DNA of 9,821 nt from a virus (lineage: Duplodnaviria > Heunggongvirae > Uroviricota > Caudoviricetes). The stretch lies in IMG/VR virus record IMGVR_UViG_2802429224_000016, one strand, 5' to 3'. This document shows positions 1 through 9,821 of this stretch, piece after piece. The position numbers and the translations under genes were made by a program. Every line of letters starts with the position of its first letter. Within the stretch, counting starts at the first letter, position 1. The notes under the pieces were generated by a model. It did not search any database. It was given only the letters and a program-made list of their open reading frames with translations, and was not told the origin of the DNA.

Positions 1-1047
1 GTCGCGGGATTTGATGTATTGCTGGTTTCTTTCCCGTTCATCCAGCAGTGCCAGCACGGTTTCTGGTCCGGCCAGAAATTTGAAGGCGTTGAGCGCATCA
101 ATATCCACACCGTAATCTTTAAGTTCCTGTTCACTTAACAAATCATCATCAGATGGCAACATTAACAGGCGTTCCATTGCTGGAATTGCACGTTCCGCCA
201 CCTCACGCAGTGCCTGGTAATTAATTTCGCTCACTGGTTGCCTCCTTTGCGAATCTGTTCCTCTGCGAATCTGTTCCTCCCATTCTTCAAGGGATTTCTC
301 CGCATATTCACCGGACAGGCCATCAATCGGGTACGGTTCATTAGCCAACTCTTCTTTCGCTGACAGAATCATGCGCGTAACGTCGAAAACTTCACGCAAA
401 GACTTATTGATAAATCCGTGATTGAACGCAGCAGCAAGACGGCTGGCGGTATAGTTAATCCCCTCGTTGCGTGCTTCCGCCCGAACTTCAGCCAGGAAAG
501 CGTCGGTGGCTGGGGTTTCGACATTAGGTCGAAGCTCATAATCACAAACTCTTTCAATCCATGGTGATACTCTGTCGCATTTCCTCTTCTTGCGTTCACC
601 GACCTTGGTTGCCTGCTGAATAATTACCCCCCAGCAAATGCTTTCGACCTCTTCGCTCCATCCATCGCAAGCATCGCCTCTATAGTCGTCAATTGCAGCC
701 TCAGCAGCAGCGATAGCCTCCTCAGCAGTTTTGTGACACTCGAAACTAAATTCAGAGCCATATGAGAAATACATAGCCCCGGCCTTAAGCCCCGCATTCT
801 CCGCCGCCAGCGCCGAAAACTTCTCGTGTGCCAACTTAACAGCCGAATCAGCCTGCTTAATTGACTCAATCGCTTTCTGCTGGTCTTCGGCCAGCGCATT
901 AGCACGCACCAGTTGCACTTCCAGTTGCGTTGCCAAATCGCTGATCAGCTTTGCCACACTACGCATATCAACGGCACCACATTCTGCTTTCAGTTCCGAA
1001 GCCATCTCATGCCCGGCGGAAACTAACCCTTTGATATTACTTTCCAT
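1..1047 (-). CDS. Long ORF (349 codons in window, no stop before the left edge): unknown N-terminal part fused in frame to an Ea22-like module
   Basis: Manual translation of the minus strand from ATG 1047-1045 (GAGGG RBS 7 nt upstream) is open through position 1: MESNIKGLVSAGHEMASELKAE...EWEEQIRRGTDSQRRQPVSEINYQALREVAERAIP...PETVLALLDERERNQQYIKSRD. It is absent from the supplied ORF track, presumably because no stop lies in the window. The segment after internal GTG 234-232 (perfect AGGAGG 246-241, 6-nt spacer) matches the N-terminal signature I recall for prophage Ead/Ea22-like proteins (YQALRE...A, then ...TVLALLDER...). Track ORFs 369..599(-) and 624..905(-) are other frames inside this ORF. 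Confidence 0.6.
   Translation of the reverse strand, partial: MESNIKGLVSAGHEMASELKAECGAVDMRSVAKLISDLATQLEVQLVRANALAEDQQKAIESIKQADSAVKLAHEKFSALAAENAGLKAGAMYFSYGSEFSFECHKTAEEAIAAAEAAIDDYRGDACDGWSEEVESICWGVIIQQATKVGERKKRKCDRVSPWIERVCDYELRPNVETPATDAFLAEVRAEARNEGINYTASRLAAAFNHGFINKSLREVFDVTRMILSAKEELANEPYPIDGLSGEYAEKSLEEWEEQIRRGTDSQRRQPVSEINYQALREVAERAIPAMERLLMLPSDDDLLSEQELKDYGVDIDALNAFKFLAGPETVLALLDERERNQQYIKSRD
248..279. repeat. Perfect 16-bp tandem direct duplication (TGCGAATCTGTTCCTC x2, plus strand) inside the long ORF
   Basis: Positions 248-263 and 264-279 are identical. The unit is not a multiple of 3, so it alters the frame relative to a single-copy state. Confidence 0.9.
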
Positions 1048-1108
1048 CTTTACCCTCGCTTATCCACATAACTTATTGATTACATTGATAACTAAAAAGA
1101 TCGTCGAT

Positions 1109-1453
1109 TCAGAACTCTTCGATGTTCCAGCCACCACCTGCTTTCTTTGGCTTAACCGTTACCCCGATGATTCGGAACGGATACTGATCTGCGGCGACTT
1201 TGGTTTTCACCCTGGCGTCGTCGGTCCAGAAACCTTTCACTTCGTGCAGTTCCATCTCGCCGGTGGCGAGCATCACAGCAAAATCGGGCGTATAGAACGT
1301 GTTGTCAGCTAACCGCAGCTTGATACCCTCGAATCGATACCAGGCGATTTCCCCTGCACGTTTACGCTGCTCAAGGTGCTGGCAATACGCAGATTCTGTT
1401 TTGTTCATCTGGCCTGTTTTGAGTCGACCAAGAGCCTGTATCTGTTTTCTCAT
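1109..1453 (-). CDS. DUF1064-like predicted PD-(D/E)xK nuclease (Holliday-junction-resolvase-like fold), 114 aa
   Basis: ORF with ATG 1453 preceded by AGAGGT (5-nt spacer). The protein carries a PD...ExK-type arrangement (YTPDF ... ELHEVKG) and the AGEI...L.L...YTPDF.V pattern I associate with phage DUF1064 proteins. Family call is from memory. Confidence 0.65.
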   Translation of the reverse strand: MRKQIQALGRLKTGQMNKTESAYCQHLEQRKRAGEIAWYRFEGIKLRLADNTFYTPDFAVMLATGEMELHEVKGFWTDDARVKTKVAADQYPFRIIGVTVKPKKAGGGWNIEEF

Positions 1454-1456
1454 GAT

Positions 1457-1533
1457 TTACCTCTAAGGTAATTAAAAACCACATAAGACACGAAATCAAT
1501 AGAGTTTAGAATGTTTTGTTACCTGATAGGTAA
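1457..1533. promoter_or_regulatory. Two operator-like palindromes TTACC-N5-GGTAA (1457-1471 TTACCTCTAAGGTAA; 1519-1533 TTACCTGATAGGTAA)
   Basis: Perfect 5-bp inverted half-sites with a 5-bp spacer, the same motif as in the oR/oL-like regions. Site 1457-1471 overlaps the RBS/5' UTR of the DUF1064-like gene. Confidence 0.5.
1471..1499 (-). promoter_or_regulatory. Candidate sigma70 promoter for the DUF1064-like/Ea22-like unit
   Basis: On the minus strand: -35 TTGATT (plus 1499-1494), 17-bp spacer, -10 TTTAAT (plus 1476-1471). The -10 lacks the conserved A at position 2, so this is weak. The 1457-1471 operator lies immediately downstream of the -10. Confidence 0.3.
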
Positions 1534-1545
1534 TTATTGAGACGT

Positions 1546-1566
1546 AAAAAAATGCGCTATCGCGCT
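1546..1566 (-). terminator. Weak intrinsic-terminator-like element after the P-like gene
   Basis: On the minus strand GCGC-GAUA-GCGC (plus 1554-1565) is followed by a 7-U run (plus A-run 1546-1552). The stem is only 4 bp. Confidence 0.2.
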
Positions 1567-1570
1567 GGTA

Positions 1571-2356
1571 TTACTTGATAAATCCTGCCGCCTTTCCCCG
1601 CCTGTATTCCTCCATCAGCCACTGCGCCGGTGTTATTCCCCCAAGGGTGGCGGCGTTAGGCATGCACCCGAAACTTCGCCCTGGTGGATGGTAAACGTCT
1701 CTCCCTGTGTCCGGAGGTGTACTCATGGGCTCTGGCTTTGCCTGTATGCTGATCACCGGATCGGGTATCTGCTGTCCGGAAGCCACCTTTTTCGCCCAAT
1801 CATCGAGCAGCCTGCGCGCGTGTTTCTCAACCTCAATCTCGCTAAGCTGGCGCTGATACATTGCACGGCGGGTATCACATACGACCCAGTACATAACCGG
1901 ATGTCGCCACGGGAATCTTTCGGGACCACCAGGATATAAACTTTTTTCCTTGCTGTACCGATGAAACTCCGCCATCACATCGTCAATGGTGACGCCAAGA
2001 ACCATCTTGCTGTCTTTACACCACTTGATGAATTGCCCTGGCGACGGCCAGAACGGAGATTCACTGGCGCGGGCGTGGCGCATACCAGCAGAAACCTGTT
2101 CACGGGTTCGGATCCCACTTTCAGCAAACGCAGCAATCCACTGCTGTTTTGCAGCGACTTCCTGCTCTGGCGTCTTCAGGTTGGTTACCACTGCCGCCGG
2201 AAACAGTTGTTTCAGCTGTTTGAAAAGGGCATCAACAAGCCTCTCTGCTGACATGTTCACCACATTGTCATTGTTGACGTACTGATGCTCATAACCTGAC
2301 ATGCGAGAAAGGGCTTCTCCGTCACGGTTTTGTATCGCGGTAAAAACGTTGTTCAC
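1571..2356 (-). CDS. Lambda P-like replication protein (replicative helicase loader)
   Basis: Conserved block WIAAFAESGIRTREQVSAGMRHARASESPFWPSPGQFIKWC resembles lambda P (recalled as RRQWVLAFRENGITTMEQVNAGMRVARRQNRPFLPSPGQFVAWC). Preferred start is GTG 2356-2354, with GGAGGA 6 nt upstream and a GTGA overlap with the O-like stop. The track's ATG 2371 is an in-frame alternative without an RBS. Confidence 0.85.
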   Translation of the reverse strand: MNNVFTAIQNRDGEALSRMSGYEHQYVNNDNVVNMSAERLVDALFKQLKQLFPAAVVTNLKTPEQEVAAKQQWIAAFAESGIRTREQVSAGMRHARASESPFWPSPGQFIKWCKDSKMVLGVTIDDVMAEFHRYSKEKSLYPGGPERFPWRHPVMYWVVCDTRRAMYQRQLSEIEVEKHARRLLDDWAKKVASGQQIPDPVISIQAKPEPMSTPPDTGRDVYHPPGRSFGCMPNAATLGGITPAQWLMEEYRRGKAAGFIK

Positions 2357-3168
2357 AAGAAATCCTCCCATGCTTCAGGGCTGTTCCAGTGCGGAACGTT
2401 GTTATCAGGTAATGTTGATTGCTTCTGTCTGCTAATCTGCAGCCGCCTTGCCAGCTTCTGCTCCCACTGTGCCTGATGGTATGCCTTACCCTCAGCCATC
2501 CAGTAAATTCTGAACTCTGCAAGTTCCTGTGCCGTTGGCAGACTGTCCAGGTAGATCCCCTGCAATGAGCTTTTCCGAAGAAAGTCATCTGATGGCTGCC
2601 ATTGTTCATGCATGACAAATTTGCCTAATTGCCCTGGCCCACGAGGAGGAACAAAGTTATTCATCACGGCGTTGTTTGCGCCGGGGTCATGAGGCACAGA
2701 ATCCCCGCTTTTTGTCCTGCTCTCCCTCTCTTGGTTAAATGACTGGTTATATGACTGGTTCTGGATCCCGTTTTTGGGATCATTCAACATCCCGTTTTTG
2801 GGATCATTCAACATCCCGTTTTTGGGTATATTCCCGTTTTCGGTAACATTACCGTTTTCGGGTTCATTACCCCCCTCCCGGTTGCCTTTAATGTTCCCGT
2901 TTTTGGTTATATTAAGAGAGAAAACCCGTACTCTTTTCGTCGCCCCCTTTCTCTCTCCGGTATCTGAAATAAGCCCCATTTTCATGAGCGATATAAGCCC
3001 GGCCTGCACGGTTTTTTTATTCAGGCAAGTGTCTTTAACGAGGCGTTCTATGCTGGGGTAGCAGAGGTTATATTCATCGGCTCTGTCAGCCATCGAGAGC
3101 AGTATGAGCTTTAATGACGAGCTACCTGGATCTGTCTCCCAGGCCCAATCTGTTGCATGTCTGCTCAT
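2353..3168 (-). CDS. Lambda O-like replication initiator (N-terminal HTH, iteron-encoded low-complexity linker, DnaT/O-like C-terminal domain)
   Basis: 271-aa ORF with ATG 3168 and GGAG RBS. The central peptide repeats (NDPKNGML x2, NG periodicity) are encoded by the iteron array. The C-terminal block QWQPSDDFLRKSSLQGIYLDSLPTAQELAEFRIYWMAEGKAYHQAQWEQKLARRLQ resembles the C-terminal domain of lambdoid O/DnaT-like proteins. Immediately upstream of the P-like gene. Confidence 0.8.
   Translation of the reverse strand: MSRHATDWAWETDPGSSSLKLILLSMADRADEYNLCYPSIERLVKDTCLNKKTVQAGLISLMKMGLISDTGERKGATKRVRVFSLNITKNGNIKGNREGGNEPENGNVTENGNIPKNGMLNDPKNGMLNDPKNGIQNQSYNQSFNQERESRTKSGDSVPHDPGANNAVMNNFVPPRGPGQLGKFVMHEQWQPSDDFLRKSSLQGIYLDSLPTAQELAEFRIYWMAEGKAYHQAQWEQKLARRLQISRQKQSTLPDNNVPHWNSPEAWEDFL
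2765..2910. repeat. Origin-of-replication iteron array inside the O-like gene
   Basis: Two identical 24-bp units ATCCCGTTTTTGGGATCATTCAAC (2765-2788, 2789-2812), a third variant (2813-2836) and degenerate copies with core CCCGTTTT(T)NGG (about 2833, 2852, 2896). The core ATCCC-N6-GGGAT has internal dyad symmetry, as lambda iterons do. Confidence 0.7.
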
Positions 3169-3183
3169 GATTAATCTCCGCTA

Positions 3184-3384
3184 TCAGCTTGAATGTTGTG
3201 GGGTGGAATTAATCATGATCTGCTTAATCTCTGCCCTGATGCGACGGTTTGATTCCATGGTGCACTCAACACAGTGTCCGTTGTAAACCCAGCGTTCACT
3301 GTCATGTCCGTGCTTACATGGTTTTCCGGTGTAGTAGCGTTTAAGTCCGCGCTTTGCGGCATCAATACGTGTAATGATTTCCAT
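3184..3384 (-). CDS. Small Cys/His-rich (putative zinc-binding) protein, 66 aa, at the cII-equivalent position
   Basis: ATG 3384 gives MEIITRIDAAKRGLKRYYTGKPCKHGHDSERWVYNGHCVECTMESNRR... with a C-x-H-x-H...H-C-x2-C arrangement. The track ORF extends to 3447, but that start is a TTG and the added N-terminus is a hydrophobic run. No family recognised. Confidence 0.45.
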   Translation of the reverse strand: MEIITRIDAAKRGLKRYYTGKPCKHGHDSERWVYNGHCVECTMESNRRIRAEIKQIMINSTPQHSS

Positions 3385-3464
3385 GGTAAGCCCTGTTATT
3401 AGTATTGGGATTACGGTTATTTTGTGCTGACACAAAAAAAAGATCAACCAGATTTGGTTTTTTA

Positions 3465-3479
3465 TTACCTTTGAGGTAC
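3465..3479. promoter_or_regulatory. Operator-like site TTACCTTTGAGGTAC (14 of 15 match to TTACC-N5-GGTAA)
   Basis: Lies between the post-cro terminator and the Cys/His-rich gene. Followed on the minus strand by a possible weak promoter (TTGATC-N17-CAAAAT). Confidence 0.35.
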
Positions 3480-3480
3480 G

Positions 3481-3513
3481 AATAGATATGAAAAGACCGC
3501 CACCCGGCGGTCT
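3481..3513 (-). terminator. Rho-independent terminator downstream of the Cro-like gene (tR1-like position)
   Basis: Minus-strand RNA AGACCGCC-GGGU-GGCGGUCU (plus 3494-3513; 8-bp GC-rich stem, 4-nt loop) followed by UUUUCAUAUCUAUU. On the plus strand it is preceded by A's rather than followed by T's, so it is unidirectional. Confidence 0.6.
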
Positions 3514-3534
3514 ACAGAGGGTTGTAGCTGGATA

Positions 3535-3765
3535 TCATGAGTAGAAGAAGTATGCCAGTTCTGCTTTTGAGCGCAGCCATTGTCTTGTTTTACAGGCTTT
3601 AAAAAGCCCATTCATCAATACTTTACCTGGCATTTTGCGCTTACCTGTTAAGTGAGTCTGGATATAGTGACTCGTCGTTCCGGCTTCCTGTGCGAAGGCT
3701 TCACGCTCATCCGGAGTAAGTGCAAGCCAGTGCTTTTTGAAATCGAAATGTCCGTTATCGCTCAT
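3535..3765 (-). CDS. Cro-like small HTH regulator (76 aa)
   Basis: Divergent from the repressor gene. The segment AGTTSHYIQTHLTGKRKMPGKVL resembles the lambda Cro recognition region (recalled as GVYQSAINKAIHAGRKIFL). Position and orientation match cro in a lambdoid immunity region. Confidence 0.65.
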   Translation of the reverse strand: MSDNGHFDFKKHWLALTPDEREAFAQEAGTTSHYIQTHLTGKRKMPGKVLMNGLFKACKTRQWLRSKAELAYFFYS

Positions 3766-3790
3766 AGCTATTGCCTGATATTTATTTCAG

Positions 3791-3819
3791 ATAATAAATA
3801 TTCACCCATAAGGTAACAA
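3791..3819 (-). promoter_or_regulatory. pR-like promoter driving the Cro-like gene
   Basis: On the minus strand: -35 TTGTTA (plus 3819-3814), 17-bp spacer, -10 TATTAT (plus 3796-3791). Operator site 3802-3816 sits inside the spacer/-35. Confidence 0.45.
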
Positions 3820-3864
3820 AAATCAAGGATAGTTACCTATGAGGTGCATTTACCTGTTGGGTAA
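3802..3864. promoter_or_regulatory. oR-like tripartite operator (3802-3816 TCACCCATAAGGTAA; 3833-3847 TTACCTATGAGGTGC; 3850-3864 TTACCTGTTGGGTAA)
   Basis: Three 15-bp palindromic sites in the divergent intergenic region between the Cro-like and repressor genes, centre spacings 31 and 17 bp. One perfect, two with 1-2 mismatches. Confidence 0.55.
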
Positions 3865-3919
3865 TATTGCTTTAAATTGAATCATCTACTGATTCATATA
3901 TGAGGCGATTTTCCAGAAA

Positions 3920-4504
3920 ATGAAAAGTATCCAGGACGTCCGCAGGCAAAATCTCAACGACTTGATCGACCGTGAATTCAATGGTGTTCAGACGCGGATG
4001 GCAGAAAAACTTGGAACTCAGGCAAATCTGGTAAACCGCTGGGCTCTTGGCAAGAAGGTTATCGGCGACCAGGTTGCGCGAAAAATTGAAGCTGCCGCCA
4101 ATAAACCCCGTAACTGGCTTGATATCGATCGCTCGCTTTCTCAGGAAGGTTTTCAGCCTGTCGGCCCGAGTGATATAGGTCAGCTGGCTGCTCACAACCT
4201 GGAACGCTGGATGAGCGAAAGCCGCGACCTTTCAACGCAGGGAAAACTACACCGCGCATCCGGCGTCGCCCAGGTGACAATCAGCCGCCTGTTAAACAAT
4301 GAGGTCAGCGTTTCCATTTCCACCCTGGAGAATGTTGCATCTGCATTCGGGCGTCATGGCTATGAATTACTGATTCACCCGCACGACCCTGCGACTATCA
4401 ACTATGACCGCTCGCGCTACGCATTGTTACCCGAAACCGAGAAAGCAAAGATCGAAAGTTACATTGAATTTGTCATCAACCAGAACGAAAAAAACAAACA
4501 ATAA
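3920..4504 (+). CDS. Putative prophage repressor with tandem HTH_XRE-like domains, no S24/LexA-type peptidase domain (194 aa)
   Basis: First HTH around QTRMAEKLGTQANLVNRWALGKKVIGDQVARKIEAA, second around LHRASGVAQVTISRLLNNEVSVSISTLENVASAFG. No Ser/Lys autocleavage motif seen in the C-terminus. cI-equivalent position: divergent from cro, flanked by both operator clusters. No SD upstream of ATG 3920, so a leaderless transcript is possible. Confidence 0.7.
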   Translation: MKSIQDVRRQNLNDLIDREFNGVQTRMAEKLGTQANLVNRWALGKKVIGDQVARKIEAAANKPRNWLDIDRSLSQEGFQPVGPSDIGQLAAHNLERWMSESRDLSTQGKLHRASGVAQVTISRLLNNEVSVSISTLENVASAFGRHGYELLIHPHDPATINYDRSRYALLPETEKAKIESYIEFVINQNEKNKQ

Positions 4505-4524
4505 AACTATAGTTTTCAGCAAGT

Positions 4525-4550
4525 AAGCCGCCATGAGGCGGCTTTTTTAT
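4525..4550 (+). terminator. Rho-independent terminator after the repressor gene
   Basis: AAGCCGCC-ATGA-GGCGGCTT (4525-4544) followed by TTTTTTATT. Confidence 0.7.
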
Positions 4551-4561
4551 TGCCTGTTAGA

Positions 4562-4638
4562 TTACCTGTTGGGTAATTTTTTTAACTCATATCTATTGAC
4601 ATCAAACCAGATACGCATAATTATTACCTAAACGGTAA
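4562..4638. promoter_or_regulatory. oL-like operator pair (4562-4576 TTACCTGTTGGGTAA; 4624-4638 TTACCTAAACGGTAA)
   Basis: Two perfect palindromes flanking a candidate promoter. The 16-mer TTACCTGTTGGGTAAT is identical to the site at 3850-3865. Confidence 0.55.
4596..4624 (+). promoter_or_regulatory. pL-like promoter for the rightward early operon
   Basis: Perfect -35 TTGACA (4596-4601). The -10 is either AATTAT at 17-bp spacing (4619-4624) or CATAAT at 14-bp spacing (4616-4621). The -10 region abuts or overlaps operator 4624-4638. Confidence 0.35.
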
Positions 4639-4657
4639 CAGACCGAGGTAACAAGTT

Positions 4658-4810
4658 ATGCAGTGGAAAATCATCAACGGTTGGTACTGCGTTACTGCAT
4701 GCGGATTCATGAGCTGGAAGTTCCGCACCTTACAGGAAGGCATCAAGTGGGCTTTCGTCAGCAAAGAAGCTCGCGATGTGGCCAACGATAACGAGATATG
4801 GGAGGGCTGA
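4658..4810 (+). CDS. Small hypothetical protein (50 aa, Trp-rich), first gene of the rightward operon
   Basis: ATG 4658 with GAGGT 8 nt upstream: MQWKIINGWYCVTACGFMSWKFRTLQEGIKWAFVSKEARDVANDNEIWEG, stop TGA 4808-4810. Below the length cutoff of the supplied ORF track. No family recognised. Confidence 0.4.
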   Translation: MQWKIINGWYCVTACGFMSWKFRTLQEGIKWAFVSKEARDVANDNEIWEG

Positions 4811-4812
4811 TA

Positions 4813-5112
4813 ATGAACGTTAATCAGCAGAAAAATCTTCAAAAAATCATGCTGGCATTCGACAAGGACTACCGCCTGTCAGAACAGCTATATGACCGAC
4901 AAGTTGAACTGATTGAGAGCATCCGACTTCATCAACTGTCCTCAACTTTCGACGTTGTAACAGGCAAAGGCGTTCGTCAGGAAGTACTGGAGGCTGCTAA
5001 AGACAGCCCTGAGTTCGAAGAACTGATGGATGCCTATCGGCGAGAGGCAATGGCAATTATCGCCCGCTGGGATCTGGCGGATCAGCTTGATGGACAGAGG
5101 GACGCGGCATGA
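4813..5112 (+). CDS. Hypothetical protein (99 aa), translationally coupled to the downstream exonuclease gene
   Basis: ATG 4813 with GGAGGG (4801-4806) 6 nt upstream; the track's ATG 4798 lacks an RBS. Stop overlaps the exonuclease start (ATGA at 5109-5112). No family recognised. Confidence 0.55.
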   Translation: MNVNQQKNLQKIMLAFDKDYRLSEQLYDRQVELIESIRLHQLSSTFDVVTGKGVRQEVLEAAKDSPEFEELMDAYRREAMAIIARWDLADQLDGQRDAA

Positions 5113-6008
5113 TGCGGAACGCTGGAATCATGGATAGAACAAAATACATCGGAGGAAGCGATGTTGCAGGGATTCTTGGAATTAGCCCATGGCGCACCCC
5201 GCTTGAGGTTTATCTGGATAAGGTCCAGCCACGTGTCAAACCAGTAGACCCAAGCAAGCAGAAAGTTTTCACGCGTGGCCAGCGTATGGAGCCATACGTA
5301 ATAGACCTGCTTTCTGAGGAAACAGGGATGGAAATCGTTCATCGCGGAAACCGCTATATCCACCGTGATTACGATTTTATTGCAGCTGAGATCGATGCAG
5401 AAGCAGCGTCAGGCGAGAACATTGAGATCAAAACAGTTAGTCCGTTCAAAGCCAAAGAATGGGGAGAAATCCAGACAGATGCAATTCCTGTGCATTACAC
5501 GGCCCAGGCCATGCACGGGTTGATGGTTACAAACAAACAGGTATGCGTTTTCGGTGTGCTTATCGGTGGCGACGACTTCCGAATCTATCGGGTTGAGCGT
5601 GATGAAGAAACTATCCAGGCGATCTTAGAAAAAGAAATCGCTTTCTGGGACCGAGTGAAAAATCTTAACCCGCCGGAAGCTACCAGCGTAAGCGATGTAT
5701 CGCTGATGTTTGAGAAAGATGCCGGGACAAGTATCGAGGCTGACGGAAAGGCACTCGCACTATTCAACGATCTACGAGACATGAAGTCACGCAGAAAATC
5801 ACTGGAAGAAGAAATAGCTATATCAGAAGAGAAGCTGAAGATGTACATGCAAGAGCACTCAGTCCTGACCCTGGACGGAAAGCCGCTCTGCACATGGAAA
5901 TCTCAGATCAGCAACAGATTCGACCAGAAGCTATTCCAGTCAGTACACCCTGAGTTATTCGAAAAATTCAAAACAACAACGACACAACGCGTCTTCAGAA
6001 TGAAGTAA
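5109..6008 (+). CDS. YqaJ-type viral recombinase-associated exonuclease (lambda-Exo superfamily, PD-(D/E)xK)
   Basis: N-terminal motif IGGSDVAGILGISPWRTPLEVY is typical of YqaJ-family phage exonucleases. Sits immediately upstream of recT. GAGGG RBS before ATG 5109. Confidence 0.85.
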   Translation: MMRNAGIMDRTKYIGGSDVAGILGISPWRTPLEVYLDKVQPRVKPVDPSKQKVFTRGQRMEPYVIDLLSEETGMEIVHRGNRYIHRDYDFIAAEIDAEAASGENIEIKTVSPFKAKEWGEIQTDAIPVHYTAQAMHGLMVTNKQVCVFGVLIGGDDFRIYRVERDEETIQAILEKEIAFWDRVKNLNPPEATSVSDVSLMFEKDAGTSIEADGKALALFNDLRDMKSRRKSLEEEIAISEEKLKMYMQEHSVLTLDGKPLCTWKSQISNRFDQKLFQSVHPELFEKFKTTTTQRVFRMK

Positions 6009-6017
6009 GGAGAAAAA

Positions 6018-7040
6018 ATGTCTATCAATGCACTTAAGGCAGCGGCTACCGGTAACCAAGTTGCACATCATAATGAGAAACCAACAACTCTGGCCGGACT
6101 TCTGGCAGACCCAAAAATTAAAGCTCAGATGGCTTTGGCACTTCCAAAGCACATGACAGCAGACCGTCTGGCGCGCATAGCAACCACAGAGATCCGAAAG
6201 GTTCCAAAACTTGCATCATGCGACCAAGCCAGCTTCCTGGGGGCAATTATGCAATGTGCCCAATTGGGTCTTGAACCAGGCGGAGCTCTTGGACACGCTT
6301 ACCTGATACCGTTCGACAAACGCCAGAAAGTAAATGGAAGATGGGAAACCGTATCTACAGAAGCACAGCTGATTATCGGCTATCGCGGAATGATTGACCT
6401 TGCCCGCCGCTCTGGGCAGATCCTGAGTATCTCGGCTCGTACCGTACATACAAACGACAAATTCAGCTACTCATACGGCCTGGAAGAAACGCTCGAGCAT
6501 TTACCTTGCGAAACAGGTGACCGCGGAGAATTAACGCACGTTTACGCCGTTGCACGACTGAAAGATGGCGGAGTCCAATTTGAAGTTATGAGCCGGGCAG
6601 ACGTTGAGAAAGTTCGTGCACTGAGCAAAGCCGGTAGCAGTGGCCCATGGGTTGATCACTTCGATGAGATGGCTAAAAAAACAGTAATTCGCCGACTGTT
6701 CAAATATCTTCCTGTTTCTATTGAAATGCAGAAGGCTGTTGTTATGGATGAGCGCGCTGAAGCTGGACTTAGCCAAGATAACGCAGCTGTTATCACTGGT
6801 GAATATTCCGTAGTTGACGATGAGCGTCAACACCTGTCGCCAATTTCAGATTCAGAACGAGAAGAAGCTCGAGAATATATCATCGCGATACTTAATAGCC
6901 TGGATCCATCTGCTGAAGATGCAAAAACGATGTTCAAGCGCGCTGAAAATGAAATTAACACCATGGCTGACAAGCTCGGTGATGAATATCACCAAAAATT
7001 CATGATGACGCTTAACGATATGCGTCCAGAATTCGAGTAA
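6018..7040 (+). CDS. recT: RecT-family single-strand annealing recombinase
   Basis: Strong resemblance to Rac-prophage RecT as recalled: MTADRLARIATTEIRKVP, LIIGYRGMIDLARRSGQI, THVYAVARLKDGGVQFEVM, GPWVDHFDEMAKKTVIRRLFKYLPVSIE. AAGGAG RBS before ATG 6018. Confidence 0.9.
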   Translation: MSINALKAAATGNQVAHHNEKPTTLAGLLADPKIKAQMALALPKHMTADRLARIATTEIRKVPKLASCDQASFLGAIMQCAQLGLEPGGALGHAYLIPFDKRQKVNGRWETVSTEAQLIIGYRGMIDLARRSGQILSISARTVHTNDKFSYSYGLEETLEHLPCETGDRGELTHVYAVARLKDGGVQFEVMSRADVEKVRALSKAGSSGPWVDHFDEMAKKTVIRRLFKYLPVSIEMQKAVVMDERAEAGLSQDNAAVITGEYSVVDDERQHLSPISDSEREEAREYIIAILNSLDPSAEDAKTMFKRAENEINTMADKLGDEYHQKFMMTLNDMRPEFE

Positions 7041-7089
7041 CCACCACCGCGGCGCCACACGCGCCGCACTGCAACCAAGAGAGGTATTT

Positions 7090-7338
7090 ATGAAAGGTGC
7101 ATTAGGTAAGAAGGAACTCCTGGCGGTGGTGCCACTGTCATGGAGCACTATCGACCGTATGGAGCGCGCAGGGGAATTTCCTAAACGCTGGTATATCACC
7201 GATAAACGCTGCGCATGGAACCGTGATGAAGTTGAGCGTTGGCTTGATGAACGTCAGGCAGCAAGCCCGGCAGAGTTCCAGGGTAAAAAGCCTCCGGTTC
7301 AGCAACGTGTATATCGTCCTGTGAGCAACGCTGCATGA
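7090..7338 (+). CDS. AlpA/Xis-like small winged-HTH protein (putative excisionase or regulator), 82 aa
   Basis: Motif LLAVVPLSWSTIDRMERAGEFPKRWYITDKRCAWNRDEVERWLDER fits the AlpA/Vis/TorI excisionase-type fold as I recall it. AGAGAGG RBS. Lies between recT and int. Confidence 0.7.
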   Translation: MKGALGKKELLAVVPLSWSTIDRMERAGEFPKRWYITDKRCAWNRDEVERWLDERQAASPAEFQGKKPPVQQRVYRPVSNAA

Positions 7339-7433
7339 GTGTGCTGCAAATGGTCAGGATGGTACTTATTCCTGGCCTCTGTTTCAGCATGGCTTTATCT
7401 GCTGGCATTAATTTTAAGAGAGGGTTGGATTAA

Positions 7434-7733
7434 GTGAGAAAGTTAAGCCGACTTGAAAAATATCACATGAATAAGGTTTCAATGCGCAGTCCGTCAAAGA
7501 TTGTCGCCGTTACTCCTGCGGCGATAGAGATCGAAAAACGCGCGATTGAACGAGAGAAAAAAGGGCAGTTCCGCATTGCCGCCCACCTTTGGCTTCAGTG
7601 TATGGATGTTGCTTCTGGTGATGTTGAGCGTGCAAGGATCGCGGTTCGCAGGGACCAATGTATCACAAAAGGTAACGGCCTTCGCCGTGGCGACTATAGC
7701 GGCATAGGATGTTGCGGGGTGGTTTATGACTAA
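7434..7733 (+). CDS. Hypothetical small protein (99 aa)
   Basis: Coordinates taken from the supplied ORF track; my own reading of the first two codons from the sequence text did not reproduce the track's start, so the start is uncertain (ATG 7467 is an in-frame alternative). Stop TAA 7731-7733 overlaps the methyltransferase start (ATGACTAA). Confidence 0.45.
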   Translation: MRKLSRLEKYHMNKVSMRSPSKIVAVTPAAIEIEKRAIEREKKGQFRIAAHLWLQCMDVASGDVERARIAVRRDQCITKGNGLRRGDYSGIGCCGVVYD

Positions 7734-8376
7734 GAAATACACACTAATCTATGCAGATCCACCCTGGGTATACCGGGACAAAGCCGCAGATGGTAATCGC
7801 GGTGCCGGTTTTAAATATCCAGTTATGAGTGTGCTGGATATCTGCCGCCTTCCTGTGTGGGATTTGGCCGCTGAAAACTGTCTGTTGGCCATGTGGTGGG
7901 TGCCAACACAACCACTCGAAGCACTAAAAGTTGTTGAAGCCTGGGGATTTCGTCTTATGACCATGAAGGGCTTCACGTGGATAAAATGTGGTAGTCGACA
8001 ACCAGATAAACTGGTTATGGGTATGGGACACATGACCCGCGCCAATAGTGAAGATTGCCTGTTTGCGGTAAAGGGAAAACTACCTCCGCGCATTAATGCA
8101 GGGATCGTTCAGTCATTTACCGCACCGCGGCTTGAGCACTCAAGAAAACCAGATGTCGTTCGTGAAAAACTTGTGCAATTGTTAGGCGATGTTTCTCGCA
8201 TTGAACTGTTCGCCCGCCAGTCGTCTCATGACTTCGATGTTTGGGGTAATCAGTGCGAAAACTCGGCAGTGCAACTACACCCTGGATACGCGTTGGATAT
8301 TGGCGGATTAACAAATGCATTCAGCAATTCTCCGCTGTCACCAACAGACAACCAGGGGCGGGAGCGTGCTGCATGA
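7726..8376 (+). CDS. MT-A70-family N6-adenine DNA methyltransferase (DPPW motif), 216 aa
   Basis: N-terminal YTLIYADPPWVY contains the DPPW catalytic motif of MT-A70-type amino-methyltransferases. No adjacent restriction endonuclease gene in the window. Confidence 0.8.
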   Translation: MTKKYTLIYADPPWVYRDKAADGNRGAGFKYPVMSVLDICRLPVWDLAAENCLLAMWWVPTQPLEALKVVEAWGFRLMTMKGFTWIKCGSRQPDKLVMGMGHMTRANSEDCLFAVKGKLPPRINAGIVQSFTAPRLEHSRKPDVVREKLVQLLGDVSRIELFARQSSHDFDVWGNQCENSAVQLHPGYALDIGGLTNAFSNSPLSPTDNQGRERAA

Positions 8377-8567
8377 ACAGGGCATCACCAGCAGATTTAA
8401 GAAAATGCCTTGAAACTGCAAACATGCTTGCACACAGCGGGATCAGGTTTGTTCCAATTCCCGCTGTCACTGATGCTGAATTTGCAACACTGTCAGCAAT
8501 ATTCGAAAACAAAATTGAATCACTGGCAGCAGAAGCAGAGATGGAAGAAAATCAGCAGAACTATTAA
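8373..8567 (+). CDS. Hypothetical protein (64 aa), translationally coupled to the methyltransferase
   Basis: ATG 8373 overlaps the methyltransferase stop (ATGA); GGGAG 8 nt upstream. The longer track ORF from 8253 overlaps the methyltransferase in another frame and is rejected. Product MNRASPADLRKCLETANMLAHSGIRFVPIPAVTDAEFATLSAIFENKIESLAAEAEMEENQQNY. Confidence 0.45.
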   Translation: MNRASPADLRKCLETANMLAHSGIRFVPIPAVTDAEFATLSAIFENKIESLAAEAEMEENQQNY

Positions 8568-8570
8568 ACG

Positions 8571-9821
8571 TTATTCCCCCGCCATCCACTTCTCAAACTT
8601 CGACGGGGAGAACGGAATCAGATCCGTATGCTCCCCGTTAATCCAGGAATCAATCATATCGGCCCACTGCTGCAACATGTAGGCGCGCTGTCTGGCGTAT
8701 TCCGCTTTGTTATATACGGCGCGCACACCTTTCTGCTCATGTGCCAGAGCCTTTTCAATCCAGTCTGAAGGATAACCAGCCTCATGCAACAACGTACTGG
8801 CTGTACGGCGCATATCGTGTACGGTGAAGCCCTGAATATGCTCACCATCTTCATTTATTATTTTCACCGTTCTGTCGATCAGAGAGTTCAGCGCGGCATT
8901 AGATAATGGCTTCCGGAAATTGTAACGACCAGGAACCAGATATTCACTTCCACCAGCGCACATCTGCAACCCAACCAATATATCCTGTGCCTGTTTAGGC
9001 AGGTAAATAACGTGCGCCCGGCTTCCCTTCATGCGGTCTGAAGGAATTGTCCATGTCCATTTTTTAAAATCTATTTCATCCCACGTTGCATTGGTGAATT
9101 CGCCTTTACGAACCATAGTGATAAGCACCAGCTTTAAAGCAATTTTCATAGTGCCCATAGCACCAATGGCATCCAGCGTGCGGAAGAACAGGCCAATTTC
9201 TTCTGGTGTCAGTGTTCGCTCTCGTGGTTTAAATATGGCGATAGACGAAGGTTTAATGTCAGCCGCAGGATTAAACAAACCATGACCACGGTCATTGGCG
9301 TGACGGTATACGCTGCTGATGATCTCCCTGGCCTGTACTGCTGTTGCCCGACCACCACGTTCGACAATGCGGTCACACAAATCACGAACCATCGATGTGG
9401 TAATTTCAGCCATCATTTTGTTGCCAAGAACCGGAAGTATGTCACGGTCGATCACCGCCTGCTTCATTGCGCGGGTACTGTCAGCCAGGATGACGTGTTT
9501 CATATAACTGTCGGTATGTACCGCAAACGTCTCGGCACCACGAATCTTTTTGATACCGTCACGTTTAGCCGCAGCCGGTGACTGGCCTGCTTTAAGCAGC
9601 TTCTTTGCAGCAATCAGTTCTTCTCGCGCTTCTGCCAGGCTGATACCGTCACGCCCATACTGCCCGATTACCAGTGTTTCGCGGCGACCGTTGATACGGT
9701 AGTCATAGCGAAACGAGACCGTGCCTGACGTAAGAACAGCTACATACAGCCCGTCACGATCGGAGACCTTGTACAGTTTGTCCTGCGGCTTGAGGTTTTT
9801 TAATTTTGTATCGGTAAGCAC
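8571..9821 (-). CDS. int: Tyrosine recombinase / phage integrase (P4-type N-terminus), 5' end truncated by the window edge
   Basis: 416 codons open to the window end. N-terminal LTDTKLKNLKPQDKLYKVSDRDGLYV is a P4-like integrase signature; the C-terminus carries HxxR (HDMRRT) and the catalytic-Tyr region (VRAVYNKAEY). The first in-window codon is GTG, so the true start probably lies just beyond 9821. Confidence 0.9.
   Translation of the reverse strand: MLTDTKLKNLKPQDKLYKVSDRDGLYVAVLTSGTVSFRYDYRINGRRETLVIGQYGRDGISLAEAREELIAAKKLLKAGQSPAAAKRDGIKKIRGAETFAVHTDSYMKHVILADSTRAMKQAVIDRDILPVLGNKMMAEITTSMVRDLCDRIVERGGRATAVQAREIISSVYRHANDRGHGLFNPAADIKPSSIAIFKPRERTLTPEEIGLFFRTLDAIGAMGTMKIALKLVLITMVRKGEFTNATWDEIDFKKWTWTIPSDRMKGSRAHVIYLPKQAQDILVGLQMCAGGSEYLVPGRYNFRKPLSNAALNSLIDRTVKIINEDGEHIQGFTVHDMRRTASTLLHEAGYPSDWIEKALAHEQKGVRAVYNKAEYARQRAYMLQQWADMIDSWINGEHTDLIPFSPSKFEKWMAGE

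Follow-up and report, generated by a model that had tools for sequence, protein, structure and literature searches.

Inhibitors of the host RecBCD enzyme are central to phage survival in enterobacteria, serve as recombineering tools and render bacteria more sensitive to quinolones. Several defence systems, one of them the retron Ec48, are reported to sense them. The closest described relative of the system considered here is that of phage lambda, in which Gam (GamS, PF06064; PDB 2UUZ, 5MBV) is encoded immediately upstream of the recombinase genes in a repressor-controlled early-left operon, and in which the C-terminal half of GamS forms the dimerisation and DNA-mimic part of the protein. Gam's N-terminal helix enters the channel of RecB that accommodates ssDNA and fills it (PMC5218532), and lambda itself has no Chi sites (PMC12315714). 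A second type of Gam protein, GamL of phage phi80, bears an accepted relation to lambda Gam that involves the N-terminal halves only (Prob 93%, E 2.5e-7) and that serves below as a yardstick. The phi80 record places the gene for Agt/Mog, described there as "anti-toxin for Gam / modifier of Gam", immediately upstream of the gamL-rec-exo genes.

The locus described here consists of two small genes, of 50 and 99 codons, at the head of an early-left operon in a 9,821-nucleotide stretch of viral DNA (IMG/VR record IMGVR_UViG_2802429224_000016; the whole of this stretch is referred to as the window). Comparison with the lambda and phi80 systems indicates that the 99-codon gene is probably a hitherto unrecognised third sequence type in the position occupied by gam and gamL, encoding a divergent protein of Gam type.

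The early operon of an epsilon15-like prophage

The window corresponds to the early region of an Escherichia coli prophage of the phiV10/epsilon15 type (Uetakevirus). Approximately 700 bases around the gene pair are 95-98% identical to phiV10, TL-2011b and other epsilon15-like podoviruses of the genus, and matching prophages are found in 559 of 5,426 complete E. coli genomes (about 10%). The initial annotation had drawn its comparison from lambdoid phages; by these genome matches and the annotation of phiV10, the element is an epsilon15-like podovirus prophage rather than a classical lambdoid one. In RefSeq genomes the element is adjoined by guaA and carries a P4-type integrase gene at its end. 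The leftward genes encode a replication P-like protein, a DnaT-like protein and a small product in the cro position (phrog_35, annotated as hypothetical), while the rightward genes run in the order two-HTH repressor, 50-residue protein, 99-residue protein, YqaJ exonuclease, RecT, AlpA/Xis, PerC, MT-A70 methylase and DUF1382, followed by the leftward integrase gene (Table 1). This arrangement differs from that of lambda, in which bet precedes exo and the N gene holds the position directly after the promoter that is taken here by the 50-codon gene.

The window and phiV10 cease to be homologous precisely at the stop codon of the 99-codon gene. Up to this sharp mosaic joint, at position 5112 where the stop meets the exonuclease start, the window is matched by phiV10 and by most of the relatives from E. 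coli; beyond it they carry a gene for a RecE-RecT fusion, and the window carries separate YqaJ and RecT genes of epsilon15 type. Elsewhere in the window, the DnaT-like replication-initiator gene (2353-3168, minus strand) contains iteron-like tandem repeats at 2732-2871, with periods of 12, 24 and 18 and with 2.6 perfect copies of the 24-mer, and by analogy with the lambda O gene these repeats probably mark the phage origin. An otherwise colinear E. coli prophage in NZ_CM169480.1, the region of which matches positions 259-9821 of the window, is about 1 kb longer. This longer region includes a gene annotated as "DGQHR domain-containing protein", which may reflect the insertion of a defence-type element among the early genes.

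Table 1. Features of the early-left operon and its control region in the window
Feature	Coordinates	Strand	Evidence and remarks
Prophage repressor, 194 aa, two HTH motifs	3920..4504	+	Pfam HTH_3; PHROG transcriptional regulator; ortholog of phiV10 gp40 / epsilon15 gp38
Intrinsic terminator of the repressor transcript	4525..4544	+	G+C-rich stem of 8 bp with a T run after it; terminator annotated in phiV10
Operator palindrome TTACCTGTTGGGTAA, upstream of the -35	4562..4576		TTACC-N5-GGTAA; epsilon15 annotates repressor sites at the equivalent place
Early-left (pL-like) sigma-70 promoter, TTGACA-17-AATTAT	4596..4624	+	10/12 consensus match
Operator palindrome TTACCTAAACGGTAA, which overlaps both the -10 and the start of transcription	4624..4638		TTACC-N5-GGTAA; invariant among aligned relatives
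50-aa protein, phiV10 gp39 / epsilon15 gp37	4658..4810	+	phrog_898; purifying selection; ATG to TGA
99-aa acidic helical protein, phiV10 gp38 / epsilon15 gp36	4813..5112	+	phrog_856; ATG to TGA; probable divergent Gam-type host-nuclease inhibitor
YqaJ-type recombination exonuclease	5109..6008	+	Pfam YqaJ 2.7e-23; phrog_434; translationally coupled to the 99-aa gene
RecT single-strand annealing protein	6018..7040	+	Pfam RecT 4.5e-57

That the two small genes are the first after a pL-like promoter, as originally proposed, is borne out by a repressor-controlled promoter at their head, the -35 and the -10 position of which are kept in Klebsiella and metagenome relatives. Seven sites in the window carry the operator motif TTACC-N5-GGTAA, where 0.23 would be expected, and the region of divergent promoters upstream of the repressor gene is likewise marked by it; the curated epsilon15 record lists repressor sites at places equivalent to the promoter operators of the window. 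Further palindromes of this kind lie far from the immunity region, at 1457-1471 and 1519-1533 between the DUF1064 and replication-P genes and at 3465-3479 downstream of the cro-position gene. The epsilon15 record likewise annotates scattered repressor sites, and the distant palindromes suggest that the control exerted by the repressor extends beyond the two early promoters.

As judged from their substitution patterns, both small ORFs are genuine genes under purifying selection. Each gives dN/dS values of 0.12-0.28 against Klebsiella and metagenomic relatives, in comparisons in which dS is saturated, and over the almost invariant first 22 codons of the 50-codon gene seven synonymous but two non-synonymous changes separate the window from a Klebsiella locus (L003), which places the constraint on the protein. 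A GAGGT Shine-Dalgarno sequence lies 8 nt before the ATG of the 50-codon gene and a GGAGG sequence 7 nt before that of the 99-codon gene, the latter ATG being placed two bases past the preceding stop. For the second gene a mechanical ORF list gives a start at 4798 (104 aa), and the annotations of phiV10, epsilon15 and RefSeq use the start of the 99-residue form. At its far end, the overlap of its stop with the exonuclease start that had been noted from the outset is an ATGA at 5109-5112. The first 60 bases of the 50-codon ORF are strongly conserved as DNA across genera, and one or both ORFs might on that account be untranslated, with an operator, nut-like site or leader as the object of conservation. 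Such a DNA or RNA element is very improbable in light of the excess of synonymous changes, the low dN/dS of both ORFs and their good Shine-Dalgarno sequences, and the gene-pair region matches no Rfam family.

Both products had been described as uncharacterised and as matching no family. The former description stands, as each of the 36 phage records in which both are encoded, the HHpred-curated epsilon15 RefSeq record among them, annotates the genes as hypothetical. The latter requires amendment, in that the two proteins are full-length members of the PHROG families given in Table 1, and holds only to the extent that both families lack an assigned function. Neither protein matches Pfam, NCBIfam or PADLOC, and the profile of the 99-residue protein recovers only 33 cluster representatives among 1.84 billion, all of them from enterobacterial epsilon15-like elements. 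In the literature that was searched, no publication ties either gene to Gam or RecBCD.

Probable relationship of the 99-residue protein to lambda Gam

The 99-residue protein resembles lambda Gam in length (99 compared to 98 residues), in pI (4.7 compared to 5.0), in net charge (-6 compared to -10) and in its helical prediction, and the two genes share their location immediately upstream of the recombinase genes in a repressor-controlled early-left operon. Acidity is a feature of the whole family, the members of which all have a pI of 4.5-4.9. The monomer model (pLDDT 69) is all-helical, with helices at residues 3-50, 56-63 and 66-98, and its breaks at 51-55 and 64-65 coincide with Gly/Asp-rich stretches of Gam in the alignment. 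The C-terminal part of the protein, PEFEELMDAYRREAMAIIARW, resembles lambda Gam by eye, and about 56 residues of this part are colinear with Gam and statistically similar to it.

Profile comparisons carry this likeness beyond visual inspection. With hhalign, the family alignment, from which a true lambda-type Gam (L079) was left out, was compared profile to profile with an alignment of lambda-type GamS; residues 32-87 align with GamS 34-90 over 56 columns at E 1.7e-5, with a Prob of 78% that lies below the usual certainty level of 90-95%. Comparisons of this kind gave a Prob of 77-79% and an E of about 2e-5. The score of 32.9 compares to 14.5 and 12.5 for reversed profiles, and exceeds the maxima of 17.6 from 100 column shuffles and 25.9 from 100 shuffles of seven-column blocks. 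When 15 diverse family members were scanned against Pfam, Gam (PF06064) led the 24,736 families for the top-scoring member, P0087 (E 0.0042; residues 31-94 against 33-96 of the 98 profile positions), at 17.7 bits and hence short of the gathering threshold of 25 bits; the protein of the window has no Pfam match at E<=0.1. Among PHROG families other than its own, P0087 matches "gam-like host nuclease inhibitor" best. A search of 177,635 distinct PDB sequences with the family HMM ranks lambda Gam first and second (5mbv, 2uuz; E 0.09), again colinearly (29-87 against 31-90). Of the two kinds of search that the initial annotation had advised, profile-HMM searching thus returns Gam as the top match, in Pfam for P0087 and among PDB sequences for the family, and structure-based searching, for which the low-confidence monomer model served as query, returned nothing specific.

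The similarity is confined to one half of the molecule. Residues 1-31 share no similarity with the helix at the N-terminus of Gam or GamL, a long N-terminal helix (3-50) being predicted nonetheless, and this segment is thus unrelated to the one that in Gam fills the ssDNA channel of RecB. GamL presents the converse case, since it shares the N-terminal half of Gam whereas the family of the 99-residue protein shares the C-terminal half, and between these two no similarity is detectable (hhalign E 0.13 and 0.2). An evolutionary relationship of the family with Gam is likely.

Gene context provides a separate line of evidence. The 99-codon gene lies directly upstream of the exonuclease gene, joined to it by ATGA coupling, in the window and in every relative examined, and this holds for three types of exonuclease, namely YqaJ, DUF3799 and the RecE-RecT fusion. 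Given this variety and the mosaic joint at its stop codon, the gene appears to travel independently of any one recombinase, which argues against a specific recombinase partner. In more distant relatives (L009, L010 and phiv142-3) a coiled-coil protein of 320-340 residues is encoded between the 50- and 99-codon genes (2980-3993 in L009; 3034-3993 in L010), and it is 45% identical to phi80 Agt/Mog (E 6e-52). The same insertion is seen in 25 IMG/VR loci (L012-L071), and the window itself is without it. Among 80 IMG/VR loci with a Mog homolog, the gene that follows belongs to the 99-residue family in 25, to phi80-type GamL in 20 and to lambda-type Gam in one, with other small ORFs in the remaining 34. 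Since all three follow Mog, the 99-codon gene occupies the slot of recognised Gam proteins. GamL, likewise a small acidic protein, is encoded in the same slot between Mog and the recombinase genes as the 99-residue protein in these relatives of the window prophage, and phiV10 has no other anti-RecBCD gene annotated.

The initial annotation had named gam-like nuclease inhibitors among the functions to be expected at this position, and for the 99-residue protein this guess is supported by the profile matches and by synteny with Mog. The companion suggestion that the protein is a new factor is less apt, as by the same matches it is more probably a divergent representative of an already known kind. 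Taken together, sequence and context favour a Gam-type inhibitor of host RecBCD with a probability of roughly 0.55.

The 34 Mog loci without a recognised Gam type (L020-L091) encode a variety of small ORFs downstream of Mog, among them a 65-67-aa type beginning MNIKCECTDMRTSVG... and several types of 56-63 aa (e.g. L034 3974-4177, L064 4011-4208, L066 4014-4202), and in these the slot could be filled by yet more unrecognised types. A different insertion is seen in L007, where a 57-aa ORF (5147-5320; phrog_6396) lies between the 50- and 99-codon genes. By eye alone it is like phi80 gp43 (L011 7970-8170) in the pattern ...NGK.Y...KL......L..VSNPR..., and would on that resemblance be another early-left gene common to epsilon15-like elements and phi80.

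The 50-residue protein

The 50-residue protein is characterised by the conserved core INGxYCVTxCGxxSW(K/R)F..(Q)E..xWAF. It contains the five Trp residues for which it was first called Trp-rich (W3, W9, W20, W31 and W48), of which W20 and W31 only are conserved family-wide. Its N-terminal half, described at the same time as hydrophobic, is so only mildly, the best 19-residue Kyte-Doolittle mean of 0.54 falling well below transmembrane values. The AF2 model has a pLDDT of 55. On its sequence the protein is a real, conserved and soluble small protein.

Kil of lambda, P22 and phi80 and cIII of lambda or C3 of P22 are of similar size and are likewise encoded upstream of a Gam-type gene in the same operon. 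The suggestion of a kil-like or restriction-alleviation function made for genes in this position finds no counterpart in the comparisons, which returned no Pfam match to Lambda_Kil, P22/phi80 Kil or cIII/C3 (hhalign E 0.14-0.15; HMM scores of at most 1 bit) and no HMM similarity to P22 Arf, Abc1, Abc2, Ral, or lambda Ea10, Orf63 and Orf60a. Several other assignments were considered and set aside. A cIII-like N-terminus (MQYAIAGW compared to MQWKIINGW) is statistically unsupported, and divergent members do not keep the motif; a lipobox, VTAC at residues 12-15, reads VTIC or VTVC in relatives and follows a putative signal region that is too short; a transmembrane helix is incompatible with the low hydropathy and with a Glu in the segment of one relative; and a beta-beta-beta-alpha motif resembling DUF2188 or the RNase H N-terminus finds no match in Pfam.

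The gene always follows the promoter immediately, with translational coupling to whichever gene comes next. It accompanies the 99-codon gene in every one of 36 phage records and 25 IMG/VR loci, all from one phage lineage, and is never found with lambda Gam or GamL. With low confidence, and by analogy with the kil/cIII slot of lambda, the protein may be an early host-directed factor or else a modulator of its Gam-like neighbour. The second of these options, in which it would enter a complex with the 99-residue protein or temper its toxicity, is rather unlikely. The exclusive pairing speaks for it, as does the parallel divergence of both genes in L023, and the two genes are either translationally coupled or parted by Mog alone. 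That same pairing is confounded by the shared ancestry of a single lineage, and in L010 the 99-codon gene is kept with an unrelated 50-residue protein (phrog_20574) encoded in first position; the occasional intervention of Mog also tells against it.

Chi sites, competing functions and meaning for epsilon15-like phages

In the most likely course of events, the repressor would leave both operators that bracket the promoter, and a single transcript would then carry the 50-codon, 99-codon, YqaJ exonuclease and RecT genes in a translationally coupled order. The 50-residue protein, co-inherited with the Gam-like gene, would be made first and might, with low confidence, act as an early host-directed factor. 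The 99-residue protein, as a divergent relative of lambda Gam that has kept the C-terminal half, would most likely bind and inhibit host RecBCD, and with RecBCD blocked, linear replication and recombination intermediates would survive for the exonuclease and RecT of the phage. Because its N-terminal helix is unrelated to the RecB-plugging helix of Gam, it may make a different contact or inhibit with a different strength.

The distribution of Chi sites (GCTGGTGG) fits this picture poorly. There are eight in phiV10 (L093 6746-27791) and six in epsilon15 (L094/L092), in a single orientation in each genome and none of them in the early region, compared to strand-specific expectations of 0.9-4.6 and 0.7-3.2, respectively. 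Part of the strand bias may arise from the G-CTG-GTG-G codon content of the co-oriented structural genes. The window holds one Chi site, at 8950 on the minus strand inside the integrase gene. The scarcity of Chi that is usual in phages with an anti-RecBCD gene is absent from phiV10 and epsilon15, and, in contrast to lambda, these carriers of the 99-codon gene are Chi-rich. Such richness is atypical of RecBCD-inhibiting phages and counts against a plain Gam function.

Two other functions for the 99-residue protein draw on this observation. If RecBCD is active during infection, as the Chi-rich genomes suggest, the protein might instead be a recombination accessory factor that, like P22 Arf or Abc1, acts on the phage exonuclease/RecT or on the ends of DNA; its invariable translational coupling to the exonuclease and the lack of conservation of the RecB-plugging helix would agree with such a role. 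It is nevertheless quite unlikely, as the coupling extends to three unrelated exonuclease architectures and the mosaic joint falls exactly at the stop of the gene, and as the protein is unlike Arf, Abc1 and Abc2, its sole similarity outside the family being to Gam. Alternatively, a protein derived from Gam may have been weakened or retargeted, either to another host nuclease or sensor such as SbcCD, with which lambda Gam is reported to interact (PMC5218532), or to a modulation of RecBCD that leaves Chi usable. A Gam-like C-terminal half joined to a new N-terminal helix would suit this possibility, as would the abundance of Chi sites, their common orientation and their absence from the early region, and it too is unlikely.

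An elaborated form of the latter, in which the 99-residue protein has swapped the RecB-plugging helix and, together with the 50-residue protein, modulates RecBCD or strikes another host nuclease or defence sensor, is improbable. Were it true, epsilon15-like phages would have RecET-type recombination of their own and could still make Chi-dependent use of RecBCD, a pairing that lambdoid phages mostly avoid.

The reading of the 99-residue protein as a Gam-type inhibitor amounts to a useful re-annotation with a small paradox attached rather than to a new kind of system. The 50-residue protein offers a clean and conserved target for a screen of small-protein function, and the Chi-richness of genomes that also encode a putative RecBCD inhibitor constitutes a testable paradox. 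Prophages of the epsilon15/phiV10 type have so far been scored as lacking an anti-RecBCD function, a gap that a third type of protein in the Gam slot would fill, and the two halves of Gam would then be seen to evolve separately, with the N-terminal half retained in GamL and the C-terminal half in the family of the 99-residue protein.
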